Source of the DNA: Streptococcus mitis
GTDB taxonomy: Bacteria > Bacillota > Bacilli > Lactobacillales > Streptococcaceae
DNA length: 64,000 nucleotides
Assembly (NCBI GenBank): GCA_963515455.1
Contig: CAUPXP010000007.1
Location: forward strand, 19,879 to 83,878
Reading direction: 5' to 3'
Both the position numbers and the translations under genes were made by a program. Positions 11,134 to 52,343 of this stretch are shown piece after piece. The stretch's first letter is position 1. The number at the start of each line of letters is the position of its first letter. The notes below the pieces were generated by a model. The model had not been told where the DNA came from. It was given only the letters and a program-made list of their open reading frames with translations, and ran no database searches.

Positions 11134-12936
11134 ATGGTATTACAAAGAAATGAAATAAATGAAAAAGATACATGGGATCTATCAACGATCTACCCAACTG
11201 ACCAGGCTTGGGAAGAAGCCTTAAAAGATTTAACAGAAAAATTGGAGACAGTAGCCCAGTATGAAGGGCATCTCTTGGATAGTGCGGATAGCCTACTCGA
11301 AATTACTGAAATTTCTCTTGAAATGGAACGCCAAATGGAGAAGCTTTACGTTTATGCTCATATGAAAAATGACCAGGACACACGTGAAGCTAAGTATCAA
11401 GAGTATTACGCCAAAGCAATGACTCTCTATAGCCAGCTAGACCAAGCTTTTTCATTCTATGAACCTGAATTTATGGAAATCAGTGAAAAGCAGTATGCTG
11501 ACTTTTTAGAAGCTCAACCAAAATTGCAGGTTTATCAACACTATTTTGACAAGCTTTTGCAAGGCAAGGAACATGTTCTATCACAACGAGAAGAAGAACT
11601 ATTGGCTGGAGCTGGTGAAATCTTTGGTTCGGCAAGTGAAACCTTCGCTATCTTGGACAATGCGGATATTGTGTTCCCTTATGTCCTCGACGATGATGGT
11701 AAGGAAGTTCAGCTATCTCATGGGACTTACACACGTTTGATGGAGTCTAAAAATCGTGAGGTTCGCCGTGGTGCTTATCAAGCTCTTTATGCAACTTATC
11801 AACAATTCCAACATACCTATGCCAAAACCTTGCAAACCAATGTTAAGGTTCAAAACTACCGTGCCAAAGTTCGCAACTACAAGAGTGCGCGTCATGCAGC
11901 CCTAGCGGCCAATTTTGTTCCAGAGAGTGTTTATGACAATTTGGTAGCAGCAGTTCGCAAGCATTTGCCACTCTTGCATCGTTACCTTGAGCTTCGTTCA
12001 AAGATTTTGGGAATTTCAGACCTCAAGATGTACGATGTCTACACACCACTTTCTTCTGTTGAATATAGTTTTACCTACCAAGAAGCCTTAAAAAAGGCAG
12101 AAGATGCTTTGTCAGTCTTGGGTGAGGATTACTTGAGCCGTGTTAAACGTGCCTTCAGCGAGCGTTGGATTGATGTTTACGAAAACCAAGGCAAGCGTTC
12201 AGGGGCTTACTCTGGTGGTTCTTACGATACAAATGCCTTTATGCTTCTCAACTGGCAGGACAATCTAGACAATCTCTTTACTCTTGTCCATGAGACTGGT
12301 CACAGTATGCACTCAAGCTATACTCGTGAAACGCAGCCTTATGTTTACGGAGATTACTCCATCTTCTTGGCTGAGATTGCCTCAACCACTAATGAAAATA
12401 TCTTGACGGAGAAATTATTGGAAGAAGTGGAAGATGATGCAACGCGCTTTGCTATTCTCAATAACTTCCTAGACGGTTTCCGTGGAACAGTTTTCCGCCA
12501 AACTCAATTTGCTGAGTTTGAACACGCTATCCACCAAGCAGACCAAAACGGGGAGGTCTTGACAAGCGATTTCCTAAATAAACTCTACGCAGACTTGAAC
12601 CAGGAGTATTATGGTTTGAGTAAGGAAGACAATCCTGAAATCCAATACGAGTGGGCTCGCATTCCACACTTCTACTATAACTACTATGTATACCAATATT
12701 CAACAGGCTTTGCAGCAGCCTCAGCCTTGGCTGAAAAGATTGTCCATGGTAGTCAAGAAGACCGTGACCGCTATATCGACTACCTCAAGGCAGGCAAGTC
12801 TGACTATCCACTTAATGTCATGAGAAAAGCTGGTGTTGATATGGAGAAGGAAGATTATCTCAACGATGCCTTTGCAGTCTTTGAACGTCGTTTGAATGAG
12901 TTTGAAGCCCTTGTTGAAAAATTGGGATTGGCATAA
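11134..12936 (+). CDS. pepF: Oligoendopeptidase F (M3B)
   Basis: 600 aa with zinc motif [16 protein letters not shown]. Confidence 0.93.
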
Positions 12937-45626: not shown

Positions 45627-45640
45627 AGTAAAAGAAGATA

Positions 45641-45668
45641 AACAGTGGGTTTCGACTCACTGTTTTTG
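45641..45668 (+). terminator. Intrinsic terminator after the sulfhydrylase gene
   Basis: Stem ACAGTGGG/CTCACTGT (one mismatch), followed by a T5 run. Confidence 0.7.
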
Positions 45669-45683
45669 ATTTTCCCTCAGGCA

Positions 45684-45692
45684 TGATATAAT
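45684..45692 (+). promoter_or_regulatory. Extended -10 promoter element upstream of the DUF2130 gene. It is the only visible promoter ahead of the 47004-50570 cassette.
   Basis: TGaTATAAT at 45684-45692, 29 nt upstream of ATG 45722. RBS AGAGGAA. Confidence 0.55.
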
Positions 45693-45721: not shown

Positions 45722-47014
45722 ATGAACGAAATCAAATGTCCTAACTGTGGGGAAGTCTTTACAGTAAATGAGAGCCAGTATGCTGAACTTCTGTCTCAAG
45801 TGAGAACAGCAGAGTTTGATAAGGAATTGCACGATAGGATGAAGCAGGAACTGGCCTTGGCTGAGCAAAAGGTAATGAATGAACAACAGACCAAACTAGC
45901 TCAAAAAGACCAAGAAATTGCGCGATTACAGAGTCAAATCCAAAACTTTGATACAGAAAAAGAATTGGCCAAGAAAGAGGTTGAACAGACAAGTAATCAG
46001 GCCTTATTGGCTAAGGATAAGGAAGTACAGGCCTTGGAAAACCAATTGGCTACCTTGCGTTTGGAGCATGAAAATCAACTGCAAAAGACACTCTCTGACC
46101 TAGAAAAAGAACGGGATCAGGTTAAAAACCAGCTTCTTTTGCAGGAAAAGGAAAACGAGCTTTCTCTTGCTTCTGTCAAGCAAAACTACGAAGCACAGCT
46201 CAAGGCAGCTAGTGAACAAGTCGAATTTTATAAGAATTTCAAAGCTCAACAATCTACAAAAGCTATCGGGGAAAGTCTGGAACACTATGCAGAAAGTGAG
46301 TTTAACAAGGTCCGCAGTTTTGCCTTTCCAAATGCTTACTTTGAAAAGGATAACAAGGTTTCTGCGCGTGGGTCTAAAGGGGACTTTATCTTCCGTGAGT
46401 GTGATGAAAATGGAGTGGAAATCATTTCCATCATGTTTGAGATGAAAAATGAAGCAGATGGAACAGAGAAGAAGCACAAGAATGCAGATTTTTACAAGGA
46501 ATTGGACAAGGACCGTCGGGAGAAGAACTGTGAATATGCGGTTTTGGTGACCATGCTTGAGGCCGATAACGATTACTTTAATACAGGGATTGTTGACGTC
46601 AGCCATGAGTACGAAAAGATGTATGTGGTTCGTCCTCAATTCTTTATCCAGTTGATTGGTCTCTTACGGAATTCGGCGCTTAATTCCTTAAAATTTAAGC
46701 AGGAGTTGGCCTTGGTTCGGGAGCAAAATATCGATATTACACATTTTGAGGAAGACTTGGATGCCTTTAAGCTAGCCTTTGCCAAGAACTATAATTCAGC
46801 TTCGACTAACTTTGGCAAAGCTATCGATGAAATTGACAAGGCCATAAAACGGATGGAAGAGGTCAAGAAATTCCTAACCACATCTGAAAACCAACTCCGT
46901 CTAGCTAATAATAAATTGGAAGATGTTTCCGTCAAAAAACTAACTCGAAAAAATCCAACTATGAAAGCGAAGTTTGAAGCGCTGAAGGGGGAGTTAGAAA
47001 GCAGTGGAAAATGA
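45722..47014 (+). CDS. DUF2130-like protein: N-terminal CxxC zinc-ribbon, long coiled coil, C-terminal PD-(D/E)xK-like nuclease fold
   Basis: 430 aa starting MNEIKCPNCGEVFTV. Gln/Glu/Lys-rich heptad region. Nuclease-like motif GDFIFRE...IISIMFEMKNE (about 46378-46452). Confidence 0.8.
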   Translation: MNEIKCPNCGEVFTVNESQYAELLSQVRTAEFDKELHDRMKQELALAEQKVMNEQQTKLAQKDQEIARLQSQIQNFDTEKELAKKEVEQTSNQALLAKDKEVQALENQLATLRLEHENQLQKTLSDLEKERDQVKNQLLLQEKENELSLASVKQNYEAQLKAASEQVEFYKNFKAQQSTKAIGESLEHYAESEFNKVRSFAFPNAYFEKDNKVSARGSKGDFIFRECDENGVEIISIMFEMKNEADGTEKKHKNADFYKELDKDRREKNCEYAVLVTMLEADNDYFNTGIVDVSHEYEKMYVVRPQFFIQLIGLLRNSALNSLKFKQELALVREQNIDITHFEEDLDAFKLAFAKNYNSASTNFGKAIDEIDKAIKRMEEVKKFLTTSENQLRLANNKLEDVSVKKLTRKNPTMKAKFEALKGELESSGK

Positions 47015-47015
47015 A
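46994..47015 (+). repeat. Left copy of the direct repeat flanking the cassette (TTAGAAAGCA + GTGG + AAAATGAA)
   Basis: Compared by eye with 50577-50594. The 10-nt block and the 8-nt block are identical; the left copy carries a 4-nt insertion. Confidence 0.85.
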
Positions 47016-48674
47016 TTATTAGTATTGAATACTGAGGAAGTAAATGAGTCTGAAAATTTAAACTATGATGAGTTAGAAGAACTATTGGAACAGCAATTTA
47101 CAATGGAGTTCTCTAATCTTGAGAAATTAGAACTAGAATGTAAAGAAATTAGTTCACCGGATAAATTAGGAGATGTTGTTTTAGATGAAATTTGGAGTCA
47201 ATTTGCGAACCAAATTGGTTTAGATATGACAAGCGACACGCTTCTTAAGCAGTATAACGATAAACATCCTAATGGTTATACAAAAGAAGAGGGTGCTAAA
47301 ATAATGAAAGATAAAAGGTATACTGATGCAAATAATGCTATGAAAGAAAGGCAAAAAAATGGAAATTTAAAGGATGAATATACTGGAAAAACAATAAAAA
47401 TTAACGAAAAAGCTAATTTGGATCACGTCATACCAAGAAAACAGATTTTTGAAAACCCATGGAGGAAAATAGCAGATATTGAAACTTCTGATTTAGCCAA
47501 TAAATCAGAAAATTTGGCAGGAACTAATGAATCTCTTAATAAAAGTAAAGGCGCAAAATCTAATAGCGAGTATATAAAGAAAAGAGAAGCAAGAGAAAAA
47601 AATCTTAAAGAACAAGTTGAAAGAGCTAATAAAAAAATTGATAAGATGAATATCTCAGATGCCGAAAAGCGAAATCTTAAGGCTGAAAATAATAAAAAAT
47701 TAAATGATAAATTGGCTGCTGATTCAGATAAGATGATTAAAGTTGAAAAAAGTGCAAAGAAAGCTATGTATAAACCAATAGCAAAGAAAGCTGCAGTTAG
47801 AATGGCGAACAAGGCAGGTAAAGACGCAGTTAAAGCTATGTTTGTTGCAGCGTTATTTGGGATGTTGAAAGAAATAATGAATGCTTTGGTTCGTTTTTTT
47901 AAATCTAAAAAACGTTCGTTTGATACATTCTTAGATGAAATGAAAAATGCACTTCATTCCTTCTTTGGTAAAATTAGAGATTTTATTAAAGTGGGTGTAG
48001 ATAGTTTTGTTGGAAGCATCGTAGGAGAAATTATTGGTGCTTTCGCTGAAAAACTAAGAAAGTTACCAAATTTGGTAAAACAATTATTTGGTTCAATTAG
48101 AGAAAGTATCTCTTATCTATCAAACCCTGAAAATCAATCTCATTCTACTGCAATTAAAATTGCCCATGTTTCAAAAATTATTACATCCGCATTATTAGGT
48201 GTAGGAGCAATGTTTTTAGGAGAATATTTTGAACAGTTCTTAAATAAGATACCAGGTATGACTTTTGAAATAAAACTTCTAGGAACAATTGCTAATATTT
48301 TAGGGATGTTCTTTGCAAGTTTACTAACTGGAATCTTGGGAGCGATAATCATTAACGGACTTGATGGTTTTATATCAAGGAAACTACAAGATGAGAACAA
48401 AAAACAACAAGTTGATAAGAAGAACGAATTGCTAAGAATTCAGGATGTTCAAATTTTTGTTGCCGAGCAAAATGTTGCTGTTAAGCGAAATGATATCTTC
48501 AGTAAGATGGCTAAGAACCATCAAAAACTAAGAGAACTACTTGGCAATGTTGATGAAGAGTTTTCTAATTCAAAGATTGATTTCAAACAGCGATTATTAG
48601 CTAATGAAATTTACTTTGATGAAAAGCAAAGTGAACTTGAAGAAATGCAAAATGCATTAAACGATTTATTATAG
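47004..48674 (+). CDS. HNH (beta-beta-alpha-Me) nuclease domain protein fused to a multi-helix membrane region and a C-terminal coiled coil (cassette gene 1)
   Basis: 556 aa. GTG start 11 nt after GGGGAG. HNH motif DEYTGKTI...NLDHVIPRK...SENLAGTNESLNKSKGAKSN (aa about 124-186, nt about 47373-47561). Hydrophobic segments ITSALLGVGAMFLGEYF and LLGTIANILGMFFASLLTGILGAIIINGL. Confidence 0.7.
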   Translation: MENELLVLNTEEVNESENLNYDELEELLEQQFTMEFSNLEKLELECKEISSPDKLGDVVLDEIWSQFANQIGLDMTSDTLLKQYNDKHPNGYTKEEGAKIMKDKRYTDANNAMKERQKNGNLKDEYTGKTIKINEKANLDHVIPRKQIFENPWRKIADIETSDLANKSENLAGTNESLNKSKGAKSNSEYIKKREAREKNLKEQVERANKKIDKMNISDAEKRNLKAENNKKLNDKLAADSDKMIKVEKSAKKAMYKPIAKKAAVRMANKAGKDAVKAMFVAALFGMLKEIMNALVRFFKSKKRSFDTFLDEMKNALHSFFGKIRDFIKVGVDSFVGSIVGEIIGAFAEKLRKLPNLVKQLFGSIRESISYLSNPENQSHSTAIKIAHVSKIITSALLGVGAMFLGEYFEQFLNKIPGMTFEIKLLGTIANILGMFFASLLTGILGAIIINGLDGFISRKLQDENKKQQVDKKNELLRIQDVQIFVAEQNVAVKRNDIFSKMAKNHQKLRELLGNVDEEFSNSKIDFKQRLLANEIYFDEKQSELEEMQNALNDLL

Positions 48675-48683
48675 GAGAATGTT

Positions 48684-49484
48684 ATGTCAGAAGAATTAGA
48701 GATTCAAGTTTTAGCAAATTCTGAAAGATTTAATGAAAAAAAACAAGAGTTAAAAGCCTTTAGTGAAGAGATCCCTGAACAGTCAGATTTACCAACAGTT
48801 CCAACAGATGATCCTATGTTAGGCTTTATTGGAATGGAATATGATGTTAAGGGTAAAGATTTGAACGCTCTTACTGATGCTGTTCAAAATAGAATGATTG
48901 AACAAAATATTCACATAAAAAAGATTATTCAAGAATTTAATACTATTTACGAAACTTTCCAAATATTGGATGATGAGTATATTCAAAGTATTTCAAAATC
49001 TTTGATTGCAGCCAAAGAGGCAAATAATAAAGCTATACAGGGATTGCACGAAATAGAAGAATATCAAATAGGTAATAACAAACTATTAGATGATGTTTTT
49101 AAACAGAATAAAGATTTAATTGATATATTGAAGAAACATCATAAAAAGCTAGAAGAGTTAGAACAACTTGAAGATAAGCAAAGTGAAATTCATAATGAAA
49201 TTGATAGTTTAAAAGCGAAGCTAAAAACATTAGTGAAAATAGAAAATAGTTTTAACGATTTGCGTTTCCAAGTTGAAGAAACACAAAATAATCTTAAAAA
49301 CGATGTAGATAAGATGAATGTTCGATTAATAGAGGAAGGTAAAAATCTTACTTTAATTGTCGAGAAATTTCAAACTGAACTAGAGGAAAAACAAAAAGAG
49401 ATTAGTTTCCTTAGAAAAGGATTCTATACTCTTGGAGTCGCTGTTGTTATAATAGTATTATTTCTATTATTTAAAGGAATGTAG
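48684..49484 (+). CDS. Tail-anchored coiled-coil protein (cassette gene 2), unknown function
   Basis: 266 aa. RBS AGGAG 6 nt upstream. Heptad-rich Glu/Lys/Asn/Gln sequence. Single C-terminal TM FYTLGVAVVIIVLFLLF. Confidence 0.7.
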   Translation: MSEELEIQVLANSERFNEKKQELKAFSEEIPEQSDLPTVPTDDPMLGFIGMEYDVKGKDLNALTDAVQNRMIEQNIHIKKIIQEFNTIYETFQILDDEYIQSISKSLIAAKEANNKAIQGLHEIEEYQIGNNKLLDDVFKQNKDLIDILKKHHKKLEELEQLEDKQSEIHNEIDSLKAKLKTLVKIENSFNDLRFQVEETQNNLKNDVDKMNVRLIEEGKNLTLIVEKFQTELEEKQKEISFLRKGFYTLGVAVVIIVLFLLFKGM

Positions 49485-50570
49485 ATGATTAGTGAAACTT
49501 ATTTAAAATTGTTAAAATCGGAAGTGAAAAAACTGGATGATTTAACAAATAATACTTATGAATTGGAAATAATTCTTCAAGATATAGTTGATAATCTTAA
49601 AAATGCTGAGTTAGAATTTATAAAACGATTAGGAAACTTGACAAGTAAAGAGACATTCTCAAAAATCAAAGATAAGCAAACTAGCATATTGGAATTATTG
49701 TATAAATATCTTGGCTCTAGAGTTATTGATACAAATTATTTAATTTTGAAAGAAACAAATAATAAATCATTTGAAGAACTAGCAAATGATTTAAAGTCCT
49801 TAATAGGTTTAGAAAATGTTAAGAAAGAAATTAAAGATTTAGTAGCGTTTAATAAAGTTCAACAAAGTAGAGAAAAAATCGGTCTTAAAAAAACAAACAG
49901 AACTATGCATATGGCGTTTTTAGGTAATCCAGGTACAGGTAAAACAACAGTTGCTAGAATTGTTGGTAATATGTATCGTTCTCTAGGAATACTAAGTAAA
50001 GGTCACTTTATAGAGGCAAGTAGAACAGACTTAATAGCAGAATATCAAGGACAGACGGCTTCGAAAGTGAAGAGATTGATACAAAAAGCCAAAGGTGGTG
50101 TATTGTTTATTGATGAAGCATATAGTATTACTGAAAACGATAAAAGTGATAGTTATGGTCGGGAGTGTTTAACTGAGTTAACAAAAGCATTAGAAGACTA
50201 TCGTGATGATTTGGTGGTTATTGTTGCTGGATATGATGAATTGATGAAAAAATTTTTTGAATCTAATCCTGGGTTAAAATCAAGATTTAATTATTTTATT
50301 ACGTTTGAAGATTATACGGTGAACCAAATGTTTGATATTTTTCTTTCATATTGCAAAAATGAAGAGTACATTTTGCATGATTCTGCAAAAGAAAAATTAA
50401 AAAAATATTTAGAATTACATAGTAGCAATCCTGAAAATAAAAATGCAAATGGGCGATTTGTAAGAAATGTATTTGACAGTATAATTATGAACCAAGCAAT
50501 AAGATTAGCCACACTATCTTTTGTTACAAAAGATAATTACATTACGATTCTTGAAGAAGATATTTCATGA
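49485..50570 (+). CDS. AAA+ ATPase of the CbbX/SpoVK/EccA clade (cassette gene 3)
   Basis: 361 aa. Walker A GNPGTGKTT (49923-49949) and Walker B GGVLFIDEAYS (D210/E211, about 50094-50126). Family-typical LIGLENVKKEI...VAGY...NPGLKSRF. The ATG abuts the upstream TAG. Confidence 0.85.
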   Translation: MISETYLKLLKSEVKKLDDLTNNTYELEIILQDIVDNLKNAELEFIKRLGNLTSKETFSKIKDKQTSILELLYKYLGSRVIDTNYLILKETNNKSFEELANDLKSLIGLENVKKEIKDLVAFNKVQQSREKIGLKKTNRTMHMAFLGNPGTGKTTVARIVGNMYRSLGILSKGHFIEASRTDLIAEYQGQTASKVKRLIQKAKGGVLFIDEAYSITENDKSDSYGRECLTELTKALEDYRDDLVVIVAGYDELMKKFFESNPGLKSRFNYFITFEDYTVNQMFDIFLSYCKNEEYILHDSAKEKLKKYLELHSSNPENKNANGRFVRNVFDSIIMNQAIRLATLSFVTKDNYITILEEDIS

Positions 50571-50576
50571 ATGAAA

Positions 50577-50594
50577 TTAGAAAGCAAAAATGAA
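50577..50594 (+). repeat. Right copy of the direct repeat flanking the cassette (TTAGAAAGCAAAAATGAA); contains the truB start codon
   Basis: Identical 10-nt and 8-nt blocks to 46994-47003 and 47008-47015. Confidence 0.85.
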
Positions 50595-51468
50595 CGGTAT
50601 TATCAACTTAAAAAAAGAAGCAGGGATGACCTCGCATGATGCGGTTTTTAAACTGCGTAAGATTTTGGGAACCAAGAAAATTGGTCATGGTGGGACCTTG
50701 GATCCGGATGTAGTGGGCGTTTTGCCCATTGCGGTTGGCAAGGCGACACGCATGGTCGAGTTTATGCAGGACGAGGGTAAGGTCTATGAGGGGGAAATAA
50801 CTCTGGGCTATTCCACGACGACTGAGGATGCCAGTGGGGAAGTGGTCGCAGAGACACCTGTTTTGTTGCCCCTGGATGAAAAAATTGTCGATGGAGCGAT
50901 TGCTAGCTTGACTGGGCCTATTACTCAGATTCCACCTATGTATTCGGCTGTCAAGGTTAATGGTCGTAAGCTCTATGAGTATGCGCGTGCTGGTCAGGAA
51001 GTGGATCGTCCAGAGCGTCAGGTTACGATTTATCAATTTGAGCGGACAAGTCCGATTTCTTATGAGGGTCATCTTGCACGATTTACTTTTCGTGTGAAAT
51101 GTAGCAAGGGAACCTATATTCGTACCTTATCGGTTGACTTGGGAGAGAAGCTTGGTTATGCGGCTCATATGTCACATCTGACTCGAACTAGTGCAGCTGG
51201 TTTACAGCTAGAAGACGCTCTTACCTTGGAAGAAATTGCTGAAAAAATGGAGGCTGGTCAATTGAACTTTCTCCATCCTCTAGAGATTGGGACAGGCGAC
51301 CTTGTCAAAGTTTTCCTAAGTCCAGAAGAGGCTACAGAAGTACGCTTTGGTCGTTTTATCGAGCTCGACCAAACAGAACAAGAATTGGCTGCTTTTGAAG
51401 GAGATAAATTACTAGCCATTCTTGAAAAACGGGGCAATCTCTATAAGCCGAGGAAGGTTTTTATCTAA
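50590..51468 (+). CDS. truB: tRNA pseudouridine-55 synthase
   Basis: 292 aa starting [17 protein letters not shown], with catalytic Asp context GHGGTLDP. Confidence 0.95.
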
Positions 51469-51578: not shown

Positions 51579-52217
51579 ATGCAAAATAGACCAATCATTA
51601 TCGGAGTGACAGGTGGTTCTGGTGGGGGTAAGACCAGTGTTTCAAGAGCCATTTTATCGCATTTCCCTGATGAAAAGATTTCCATGATTGAGCATGATTC
51701 ATACTACAAGGATCAGTCTCACTTGACCTTTGAAGAGCGTGTCAAAACCAACTATGACCATCCTTTTGCCTTTGATACAGACTTGATGATTGAGCAGATA
51801 AAGGAATTGTTGGCAGGGCGTCCGGTGGACATCCCGACTTATGACTATACAGAGCATACACGAAGCAGCAAAACCTATCGTCAGGAGCCTCAAGATGTCT
51901 TTATCGTTGAGGGGATTTTGGTCTTGGAGGACAAGCGCCTGCGCGATTTGATGGATATCAAGATTTTTGTGGATACGGATGACGATGTGCGCATTATTCG
52001 TCGGATCAAGCGTGACATGGAAGAGCGTGGCCGTAGTCTCGATAGCGTTATTGACCAGTACTTAGGTGTGGTCAAACCTATGTACCATCAGTTTATCGAA
52101 CCAACCAAGCGTTATGCGGATATCGTCATTCCTGAGGGAGTCAGCAATACTGTTGCTATCGATCTTTTGACAACCAAGATTGCAAAGATTTTGGAAGAAG
52201 CTCGAAACAGTAAATAA
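51579..52217 (+). CDS. udk: Uridine kinase
   Basis: 212 aa with P-loop [21 protein letters not shown]. Confidence 0.95.
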
Positions 52218-52343
52218 ACAGATGTGGAGGCCTTGCCTCCTTTTTTATTTTTCACTCATAATGGTACATAAATGGAGATTTTTAGGCATATTTTTGGTAT
52301 AATAATACCCATGAAAGAGCAAGAAAATGAATAGTAGGTGGAG

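Follow-up and report, generated by a model that had tools for sequence, protein, structure and literature searches.

Hotspots of horizontal gene transfer (HGT) that lack mobile genetic elements (MGEs) are over-represented in transformable species and show recombination in the core genes on either side (Oliveira et al., 2017, PMC5635113). In pneumococcus, heterologous loci are swapped through flanking homology (PMC3573125); the capsule locus between dexB and aliA and the DpnI/DpnII/DpnIII loci present non-homologous alternatives at one position, which are exchanged by transformation through homologous flanks and include some phage-defence cargo (PMC3573125, PMC4471560). A merodiploid model of Streptococcus pneumoniae describes the recombinase-independent trapping of foreign DNA by a homologous anchor, with duplication of recipient sequence (PMC3784515). 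Here we analysed a 64-kb stretch of Streptococcus mitis DNA (assembly GCA_963515455.1, contig CAUPXP010000007.1; hereafter the window), in which a low-GC block of three genes, g1, g2 and g3 (the cassette, 47004-50570), sits inside the DUF2130-truB-udk operon. Comparison with other streptococci indicates that this 3.57-kb block is probably one of the alternative alleles at an accessory-gene hotspot that lacks an integrase and is shared by mitis- and sanguinis-group streptococci.

Like the MGE-free hotspots (PMC5635113), the DUF2130-truB site has core genes that bracket strain-specific cargo with no integrase or transposase, belongs to a naturally transformable clade and occurs as empty, alternative and degraded alleles. 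It differs in that the insertion point is defined to the nucleotide, within a ~10-nt translational leader inside an operon, and in that the cargo is nearly all co-oriented and promoterless, several classes having junction duplications. The likeness to pneumococcal locus exchange is read here from sequence; the DUF2130-truB site departs from those loci in having a truly empty allele and many more alternatives. An 'intercellular cassette mechanism' was reportedly named by Lacks in 1986, and homology-facilitated illegitimate recombination in S. pneumoniae is said to have been described by Prudhomme and colleagues in 2002. The merodiploid model and illegitimate recombination of this kind would offer the site an anchored, recombinase-independent way of trapping DNA and of duplicating recipient sequence; the published duplications span 100-900 kb between long repeats, whereas those seen here span 8-160 nt.

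Alleles at the DUF2130-truB site

One genome per species was scanned, and 54 streptococcal loci around DUF2130 were retrieved. DUF2130 and truB lay on the same stretch in 50 of the 54, either adjacent or bracketing an insert, and the occupancy counts cover these 50 loci. The site was empty in 14 loci and held a 57-nt spacer in one (S. pacificus). The full three-gene cassette was present in six, five of them in the mitis/oralis group (L001, L002, L004, L013 and L019) and one in S. sanguinis (L042), and a deletion remnant of it in one (L023). Unrelated cargo of 0.5-6.2 kb occupied the other 28. An earlier note on this DNA had raised the idea that DUF2130-truB is a variable hotspot and that the block is an insertion; the tabulation, with its empty, cassette, remnant and other-cargo alleles, bears out the first, and genome comparison with the real empty sites bears out the second.

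Clustering of the encoded proteins gave 24 protein families at the site. The kinds of cargo include a GNAT acetyltransferase, an alpha/beta-hydrolase, an opposite-strand oxidoreductase and arrays of uncharacterised membrane-protein paralogues. In S. suis (L052) the cargo is a 911-amino-acid (aa) SF1 helicase with DUF2726, which gave strong PADLOC matches to MkoA/MkoC (Mokosh), PDC-S37 and Hhe. Tandem arrays of 2-5 paralogous ~270-aa membrane proteins (family F1) were seen in L040, L030, L024 and L035; this family had no Pfam or PADLOC match and often occurs with families F8 and F9. Four further loci (L003, L006, L034 and L049) have DUF2130 and no truB within the retrieved downstream flank (up to ~6 kb, in L003); these may hold larger inserts or rearrangements, or be contig ends.

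Searches of the three cassette proteins against Pfam, NCBIfam and PADLOC found no integrase or transposase, and a search for terminal inverted repeats of the block found none, as had been supposed before. Among ten representatives of the cargo families, a subset of the families, the scan likewise found no mobility gene.

Real empty sites and a private stop-loss mutation

The empty sites read GGGGAG-TGA-GAAAGCAAAA-ATG, in longer form ...GAAGGGGGAG-TGA-GAAAGCAAAA-ATGAACGG. The TGA type occurs verbatim in six species representatives (L005, L008, L010, L011, L026 and L054; GGGGAGTGAGAAAGCAAAAATGAACGG). Minor variants are a TAG form, one base shorter, in two loci (L007 and L022; GGGGAGTAGAAAGCAAAAATG) and a TAA form in S. 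cristatus (L043). It had been proposed that a clean empty site can be reconstructed by removing one repeat copy together with the intervening DNA. Empty sites do exist (14/50), but the reconstructed 27-mer GGGGAGTTAGAAAGCAAAAATGAACGG occurs in none of the fetched genomes. The real TGA site differs from GGGGAGTTAGAAAGCAAAAATGAACGG at a single base, which is the middle of the native DUF2130 stop codon; GGGGAGTTAGAAAGCAAAAATGAACGG would let DUF2130 read ~20 codons into truB, whereas the real sites stop at TGA or TAG.

The TGA at 47012-47014 is the DUF2130 stop codon in the window lineage, just as the earlier note had it. Elsewhere it is not: its role follows from a private change of TGA to TTA at 46995-46997 (+ strand), where genome comparison places the native DUF2130 stop of relatives (TGA, TAG or TAA). 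In the other GTDB carriers the DUF2130 stop is intact, mostly TGA with TAG in L013, and among metagenome contigs, scanned with a degenerate pattern, all 21 of 21 carrier junctions have TGA. TTA was seen only in the window and in L108, a member of the same lineage that was retrieved by exact protein identity. Since TTA is confined to this lineage, it is a private stop-loss, and both the 47012 TGA and the LESSGK tail are derived. The mutation adds these six codons, so that DUF2130 overlaps the start of g1 by 11 nt, and it makes the perfect 10/10 match of the flanking repeat described below partly accidental.

Sequence and extent of the junction repeat

The exact 10-mer TTAGAAAGCA is found only twice in the window, once at each edge of the block, at 46994-47003 and 50577-50586 (both + strand). 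With one mismatch allowed there were 8 matches against 8.8 expected in the window; only the exact junction pair stands out. By sequence comparison the left copy is the resident truB leader, with a Shine-Dalgarno (SD)-like AGAAAG, which would now serve g1. The right copy is the truB leader, followed by AAA and the truB ATG at 50590. The repeat would thus present an SD-type leader twice, once for g1 and once for truB. Among 30 carrier junctions compared, the left copy is TGAGAAAGCA in 24, and the right copy is TTAGAAAGCA, TCAGAAAGCA, TTAGAAAGCG or TTAGAAAGTA. The core common to carriers is AGAAAGCA plus a matching T two bases upstream, 8-9 nt in all, and the perfect 10/10 match is specific to the lineage of the window.

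In carriers the repeat covers the truB SD leader, positions -11 to -4 and perhaps -13; it does not reach the truB start codon, so the earlier description of a duplicated truB start region does not hold. That description had included GTGG (47004-47007) as an indel, followed by AAAATGAA (47008-47015, and again at 50587-50594) and a shared TATTA. The coordinates are all correct, and the proposed extension is rejected: these bases are native g1 coding sequence. GTGG-AAAATGAA-...TATTA encodes the conserved E-N-E-x-L N-terminus of g1, in which GAA-AAT-GAA gives E-N-E. Its first residues are V-E-N-E-L-L-V-L-N in the window, and in S. sanguinis they are M-G-N-E-I-L-V-Q-N; a homologue on a Lactococcus plasmid, 22% identical, begins M-A-N-E-N-V-L-Q-N, and further distant homologues begin MEKENEIL, MDGENAVLN and MNENSVM. 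A 53%-identical relative in an unrelated contig starts GTGAAAAATGAAAAT. All the distant homologues compared lack a truB neighbour, and because the E-N-E motif is kept in them the extension is not part of the duplication. The GTG at 47004 stands as the initiation codon of g1: in S. sanguinis L042 this codon is ATG, and the homologue in L111 starts GTGAAAAATGAA.

Polymorphisms of the left copy (TAG versus TGAG, GGAAG, AAAAC) mirror the empty-site alleles, consistent with the left copy being resident sequence. The leaders of six out-group copies of the module, in unrelated contexts, are GGAG-type and lack AGAAAGCA, which argues that the left copy is target-derived and that foreign sequence starts precisely with the g1 initiation codon.

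The repeat could instead be a coincidence or a convergence, g1 and truB having similar SD-type leaders and the cassette having been inserted just after the DUF2130 stop with no duplication. AGAAAG can pair with the extreme 3' end of 16S rRNA. It occurs in 9 of the 49 gene leaders of the window, compared with ~1% of background 25-mers, so the probability of a chance or convergent match lies well above 4^-10. The leader of DUF2130 itself is CTAGAAAGAGGA, the left copy varies among carriers, and several other cargo classes begin right after the stop with a GGAGG leader of their own and no evident duplication. Against this, the identity between the copies exceeds AGAAAG, reaching AGAAAGCA and the matching T, and all six out-group g1 leaders are GGAG-type without AGAAAG. 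We roughly estimate a chance match at ~1e-3 after allowing for SD bias, and regard convergence as unlikely, although it is the most serious of the alternatives.

Diversity of the cassette and its presence in S. sanguinis

All 30 carrier junctions were found at one site. Amino acid identity to the window was 85-98% for g1, 68-97% for g2 and 70-99% for g3, compared with ~97% for DUF2130. The cassette is internally mosaic, adjacent 200-nt bins ranging from 75% to 100%, and is more diverse than its flanks. A recurrent deletion allele, in which g1(1-236) is fused to g3(292-338), was found on at least six contigs (L023, positions 11283-12122, and L098, L103, L104, L105 and L106); as these contigs are independent, the allele circulates in the population. 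The mosaicism, the diversity and the recurrent deletion allele together identify the cassette as an old, population-wide allele, and the notion of a recent acquisition in this strain has to be given up.

The S. sanguinis cassette (L042) occupies the identical site and has 80-95% nucleotide identity to the window. The DUF2130 and truB genes that bracket it are ~60-80% identical to those of the window and 90-100% identical to those of other S. sanguinis almost to the junctions. The last ~25 nt of DUF2130 are mitis-type (GCGCT.AAGGGAGAGTGA, with an -LKGE end before the stop), and truB is sanguinis-type from about base 9. This pattern shows that the cassette passed between species into the corresponding site and that the crossovers fell very near its ends. 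The exchange either relied on very short stretches of homology or brought in longer tracts that have since been overwritten. Possible signs of recombination in the flanks are this ~25-nt mitis-type tract and dips in flank identity beside the site.

An old and diverse cassette would also be expected if it were ancestral in the mitis group and the empty sites were the product of precise deletions across the short direct repeats, made in place or imported. Such a deletion would leave the exact empty sequence that is observed, and the remnant allele attests that internal deletions occur. Several observations argue against this account. The GC content of 0.29 marks the cassette as foreign; empty sites are found in S. 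pneumoniae, S. pseudopneumoniae, S. mitis, S. oralis and S. cristatus with lineage-specific TAA, TAG and TGA variants; the identical point holds unrelated cargo in at least 28 genomes; and homologous modules occur in unrelated contexts elsewhere. We consider an ancestral cassette improbable.

No close copy of the cassette on a mobile element was found in phage and plasmid collections, where the relatives were only 22-31% identical. The original donor ends are not visible in the closest non-streptococcal relatives (P0123-P0126 and P0133), which at 43-53% identity are too divergent or fragmentary.

Origin and spread of the cassette allele

The explanation that we favour, with reasonable though far from complete confidence, is a single old illegitimate insertion into the truB leader, followed by transformation and flanking homologous recombination. 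A promoterless low-GC module would have been joined once, long ago, into the short truB leader by illegitimate recombination of a micro-homology type, leaving an 8-9-nt piece of the leader (T.AGAAAGCA) on both sides. The g1 gene would then use the resident leader for its translation and truB would use the copy, and the whole block would be read through from the DUF2130 promoter. Since then natural transformation has probably carried the allele from strain to strain and across species, the crossovers lying in or beside DUF2130 and truB, and empty alleles and the many alternative cargoes would be its competitors for the site. A later G-to-T change in the window lineage destroyed the native DUF2130 stop, extended the open reading frame to the TGA at 47012 and incidentally made the perfect 10-mer. 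Insertions that leave truB translated and supply the first incoming gene with a ribosome-binding site are probably those that selection retains. Spread by transformation and recombination, which the earlier note had put forward for the acquisition of the cassette, fits the single site, the many alleles, the lack of mobility genes and a host clade that is naturally transformable, as in the published account of MGE-free hotspots (PMC5635113).

Four points weigh against this explanation. The imported tracts in S. sanguinis L042, at most ~25 nt on the left and ~22 nt on the right, are marginal for RecA-mediated exchange unless they were overwritten. The founding event is not reconstructable, no donor context being closer than ~50% identity. 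Leaders in the window often contain AGAAAG, which leaves room for convergence in part of the repeat. Finally, a double crossover with linear DNA gives no target duplication, and an extra assumption is needed, for which a circular intermediate, interchromatid integration and a staggered break are candidates.

Junction duplications recur at the hotspot. In a second cargo class (L024, L009, L029, L030 and L028) ~16 nt of the DUF2130 end are duplicated: it ends with a diverged copy of ...TGAAGGGGGAGTGAGAAAGCAA and keeps GGGGAGTGAGA on the left. Two multi-gene cargo arrays contain internal pseudo-copies of the truB leader and 5' end, of ~160 nt in L031 (13610-13771) and of ~110 nt in L035 (15198-15306), which shows that the start of truB had been duplicated by earlier insertions. 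Such structures could result if transforming DNA integrated by a circular (Campbell-type) or an interchromatid route; the interchromatid route is documented at a far larger scale (PMC3784515). It is conceivable, and in our judgement a long shot, that the recurrent duplications of 8-9, ~16, ~110 and ~160 nt point to a specific way of capturing DNA without a recombinase, which could be Campbell-type or interchromatid integration of transforming DNA with its anchor in the truB leader or 5' end. If so, the DUF2130-truB operon would resemble an integron platform, in which foreign cassettes without promoters are expressed from a promoter of the host and each new gene receives a ready-made ribosome-binding site.

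The repeat might also be taken as a target-site duplication or att core made by a transposase or site-specific recombinase acting in trans, with the cassette as a non-autonomous mobile element. A short direct repeat of target sequence does flank the insert, and the ~110-nt, ~160-nt and ~16-nt duplications of the other hotspot variants could be read in the same way. Yet there are no terminal inverted repeats, hairpin, attC-like structure or recombinase; the insert begins exactly at a start codon and ends 6-9 nt past a stop codon; 30 of 30 carrier junctions lie at one site; the repeat is not conserved between copies or carriers; and the length of the duplication differs from one cargo class to another, where a single enzyme should give a fixed length. 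We judge such an element very improbable. Autonomous elements are rejected: a transposon or insertion sequence by the lack of inverted repeats and transposase, the single site and the copies that differ in most carriers, an integron gene cassette by the 19-nt 3' spacer without inverted repeat (attC) and the lack of an integrase, and an integrase-borne island by the lack of a recombinase and the mismatch between the left TGAGAAAGCA in 24/30 junctions and the right TTAGAAAGCA or TCAGAAAGCA.

Operon organization

All features of the operon lie on the + strand. On the left it is limited by a terminator-like hairpin that closes the upstream gene (45640-45665, from a terminator scan). An extended -10-like TGATATAAT ahead of DUF2130, read from the sequence at approximately 45683-45691, is the likely operon promoter. 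The DUF2130 gene (45722-47014; Pfam PF09903, 4.5e-81) forms the conserved left flank, with 54 streptococcal homologues, and encodes 430 aa here and 424 aa in relatives. The three cassette genes follow, co-oriented and tightly packed: g1 (47004-48674; 556 aa), g2 (48684-49484; 266 aa) and g3 (49485-50570; 361 aa, stop codon at 50568-50570). Successive spacings from DUF2130 through g1, g2 and g3 to truB are -11, 9, 0 and 19 nt, the last as noted before. The conserved right flank is truB, encoding tRNA pseudouridine synthase B (50590-51468), and the last gene of the operon is uridine-kinase-like (udk; PF00485 PRK; 51579-52217). A terminator-like GC hairpin followed by a T run (52226-52240) sets the right limit. 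The GC content is 0.29 in the cassette, compared with 0.40-0.44 for the flanks; along the sequence it falls from 0.40-0.49 outside the block to 0.25-0.32 inside it.

Between 45665 and 52226 the scan found no terminator-like site other than a weak 5-bp stem within truB, in agreement with the earlier statement that there is no terminator, and promoter-like matches showed no excess in the terminator/promoter scan of the operon region. With no terminator between the outer hairpins, the block is part of the DUF2130-truB-udk operon and would be co-transcribed with it.

The DUF2130 protein carries a CxxC motif in its N-terminal part, together with a long coiled coil and a motif resembling D...E-x-K (GDFIF...FEMK). 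Homologues ~50% identical occur in Neisseria, Saccharibacteria, Bacteroides and a Methanomethylophilaceae archaeon (loci L055-L080); this distribution suggests that the DUF2130 gene itself is horizontally mobile.

The cassette proteins

The g3 product is a CbbX/SpoVK/EccA-type AAA+ ATPase with AAA_lid_6 (PF00004, 8e-19; PF17866, 2e-15; CbbX 3zuh, E = 1.8e-59). Its scores fall short of the SpoVK, CbbX and EccA equivalog cut-offs, which places it in this family and outside those orthologue groups. The g2 product has a coiled coil and a C-terminal membrane anchor (residues 245-263).

For g1, the residues D140-H141, N166, N170, N179 and K182 are invariant among homologues. In an AlphaFold model the invariant region is formed by strands and a helix with a predicted local distance difference test (pLDDT) score of 85-94, and long helices and hydrophobic segments (at 423-457) come after it. 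The modelled invariant region suggests a putative HNH-like module. The Pfam HNH_4 match of 16.5 bits is below the 22-bit cut-off, and a PDB profile search gave matches only at E = 0.13-0.19, BrxU being at E = 0.19. A whole-model Foldseek search of the PDB (mean pLDDT of the model 66) returned nothing at E <= 0.001, only long-helix noise. Sequence and fold searches did not confirm a nuclease identity. A protein of Aeromonas phages D3, D6, D9 and LAh10 (H16-H22), which are jumbo phages of ~260 kb, is 31% identical to residues 104-275 of g1, the putative HNH region.

The closest systems on the defence side are the PADLOC candidate system PDC-M40 and the JukA-associated effector operons, in which JukA pairs with variable effectors (bioRxiv 10.1101/2022.09.17.508391). 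The likeness lies in g1, which matches PADLOC PDC-M40B (PDLC04630) over residues 96-514 at E = 1.1e-10, as do 13 of 15 homologues; the g1 match is weak compared with 8e-64 for an enterobacterial protein. That protein is encoded on the Raoultella planticola plasmid p3045-3 (L082, 3408-6218), where a WYL regulator, a JukA homologue (2.6e-58) and the PDC-M40B protein form one operon. The PDC-M40B protein there directly follows the JukA sensor homologue, so that a g1-type protein is paired with a jumbo-phage sensor. A literature search for 'PDC-M40' found no papers. The cassette differs from these operons in that it contains no JukA, PADLOC giving no match to JukA or PDC-M40A in g2 or g3, and in that g1 is accompanied by a coiled-coil membrane protein and an AAA+ ATPase of the CbbX/SpoVK type. 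Only the Raoultella locus was seen to have JukA.

This partner architecture is kept in Lactococcus and metagenomic relatives. A Lactococcus cremoris plasmid carries the same three genes beside a type I restriction-modification (R-M) system and IS982, with g3 57% and g2 39% identical, and two metagenomic or genomic contexts have the same architecture, one of them beside MutH-like, WYL and M78 genes. The PDC-M40B matches, the contexts of the module and the JukA pairing make a defence role plausible, and the cassette may be regarded as a candidate defence module with g1 as a plausible effector.

Discussion

The interpretation in the earlier note is right in outline and wrong on three details: how the empty site reads, where the DUF2130 stop comes from and how far the duplication reaches. 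The hotspot is an ordinary, well-understood kind of genome variation, and the findings at the DUF2130-truB site do not overturn current understanding. What they provide is a nucleotide-resolution case in which transformable commensal streptococci keep, within a housekeeping operon, a slot for accessory and partly anti-phage genes that operates without mobile-element machinery. The uncharacterised three-gene module, with g1 as its HNH-like membrane protein, recurs beside R-M and defence genes in other Firmicutes and is a reasonable candidate for phage defence, and the DUF2130-truB site could be a hunting ground for new accessory systems in oral streptococci.

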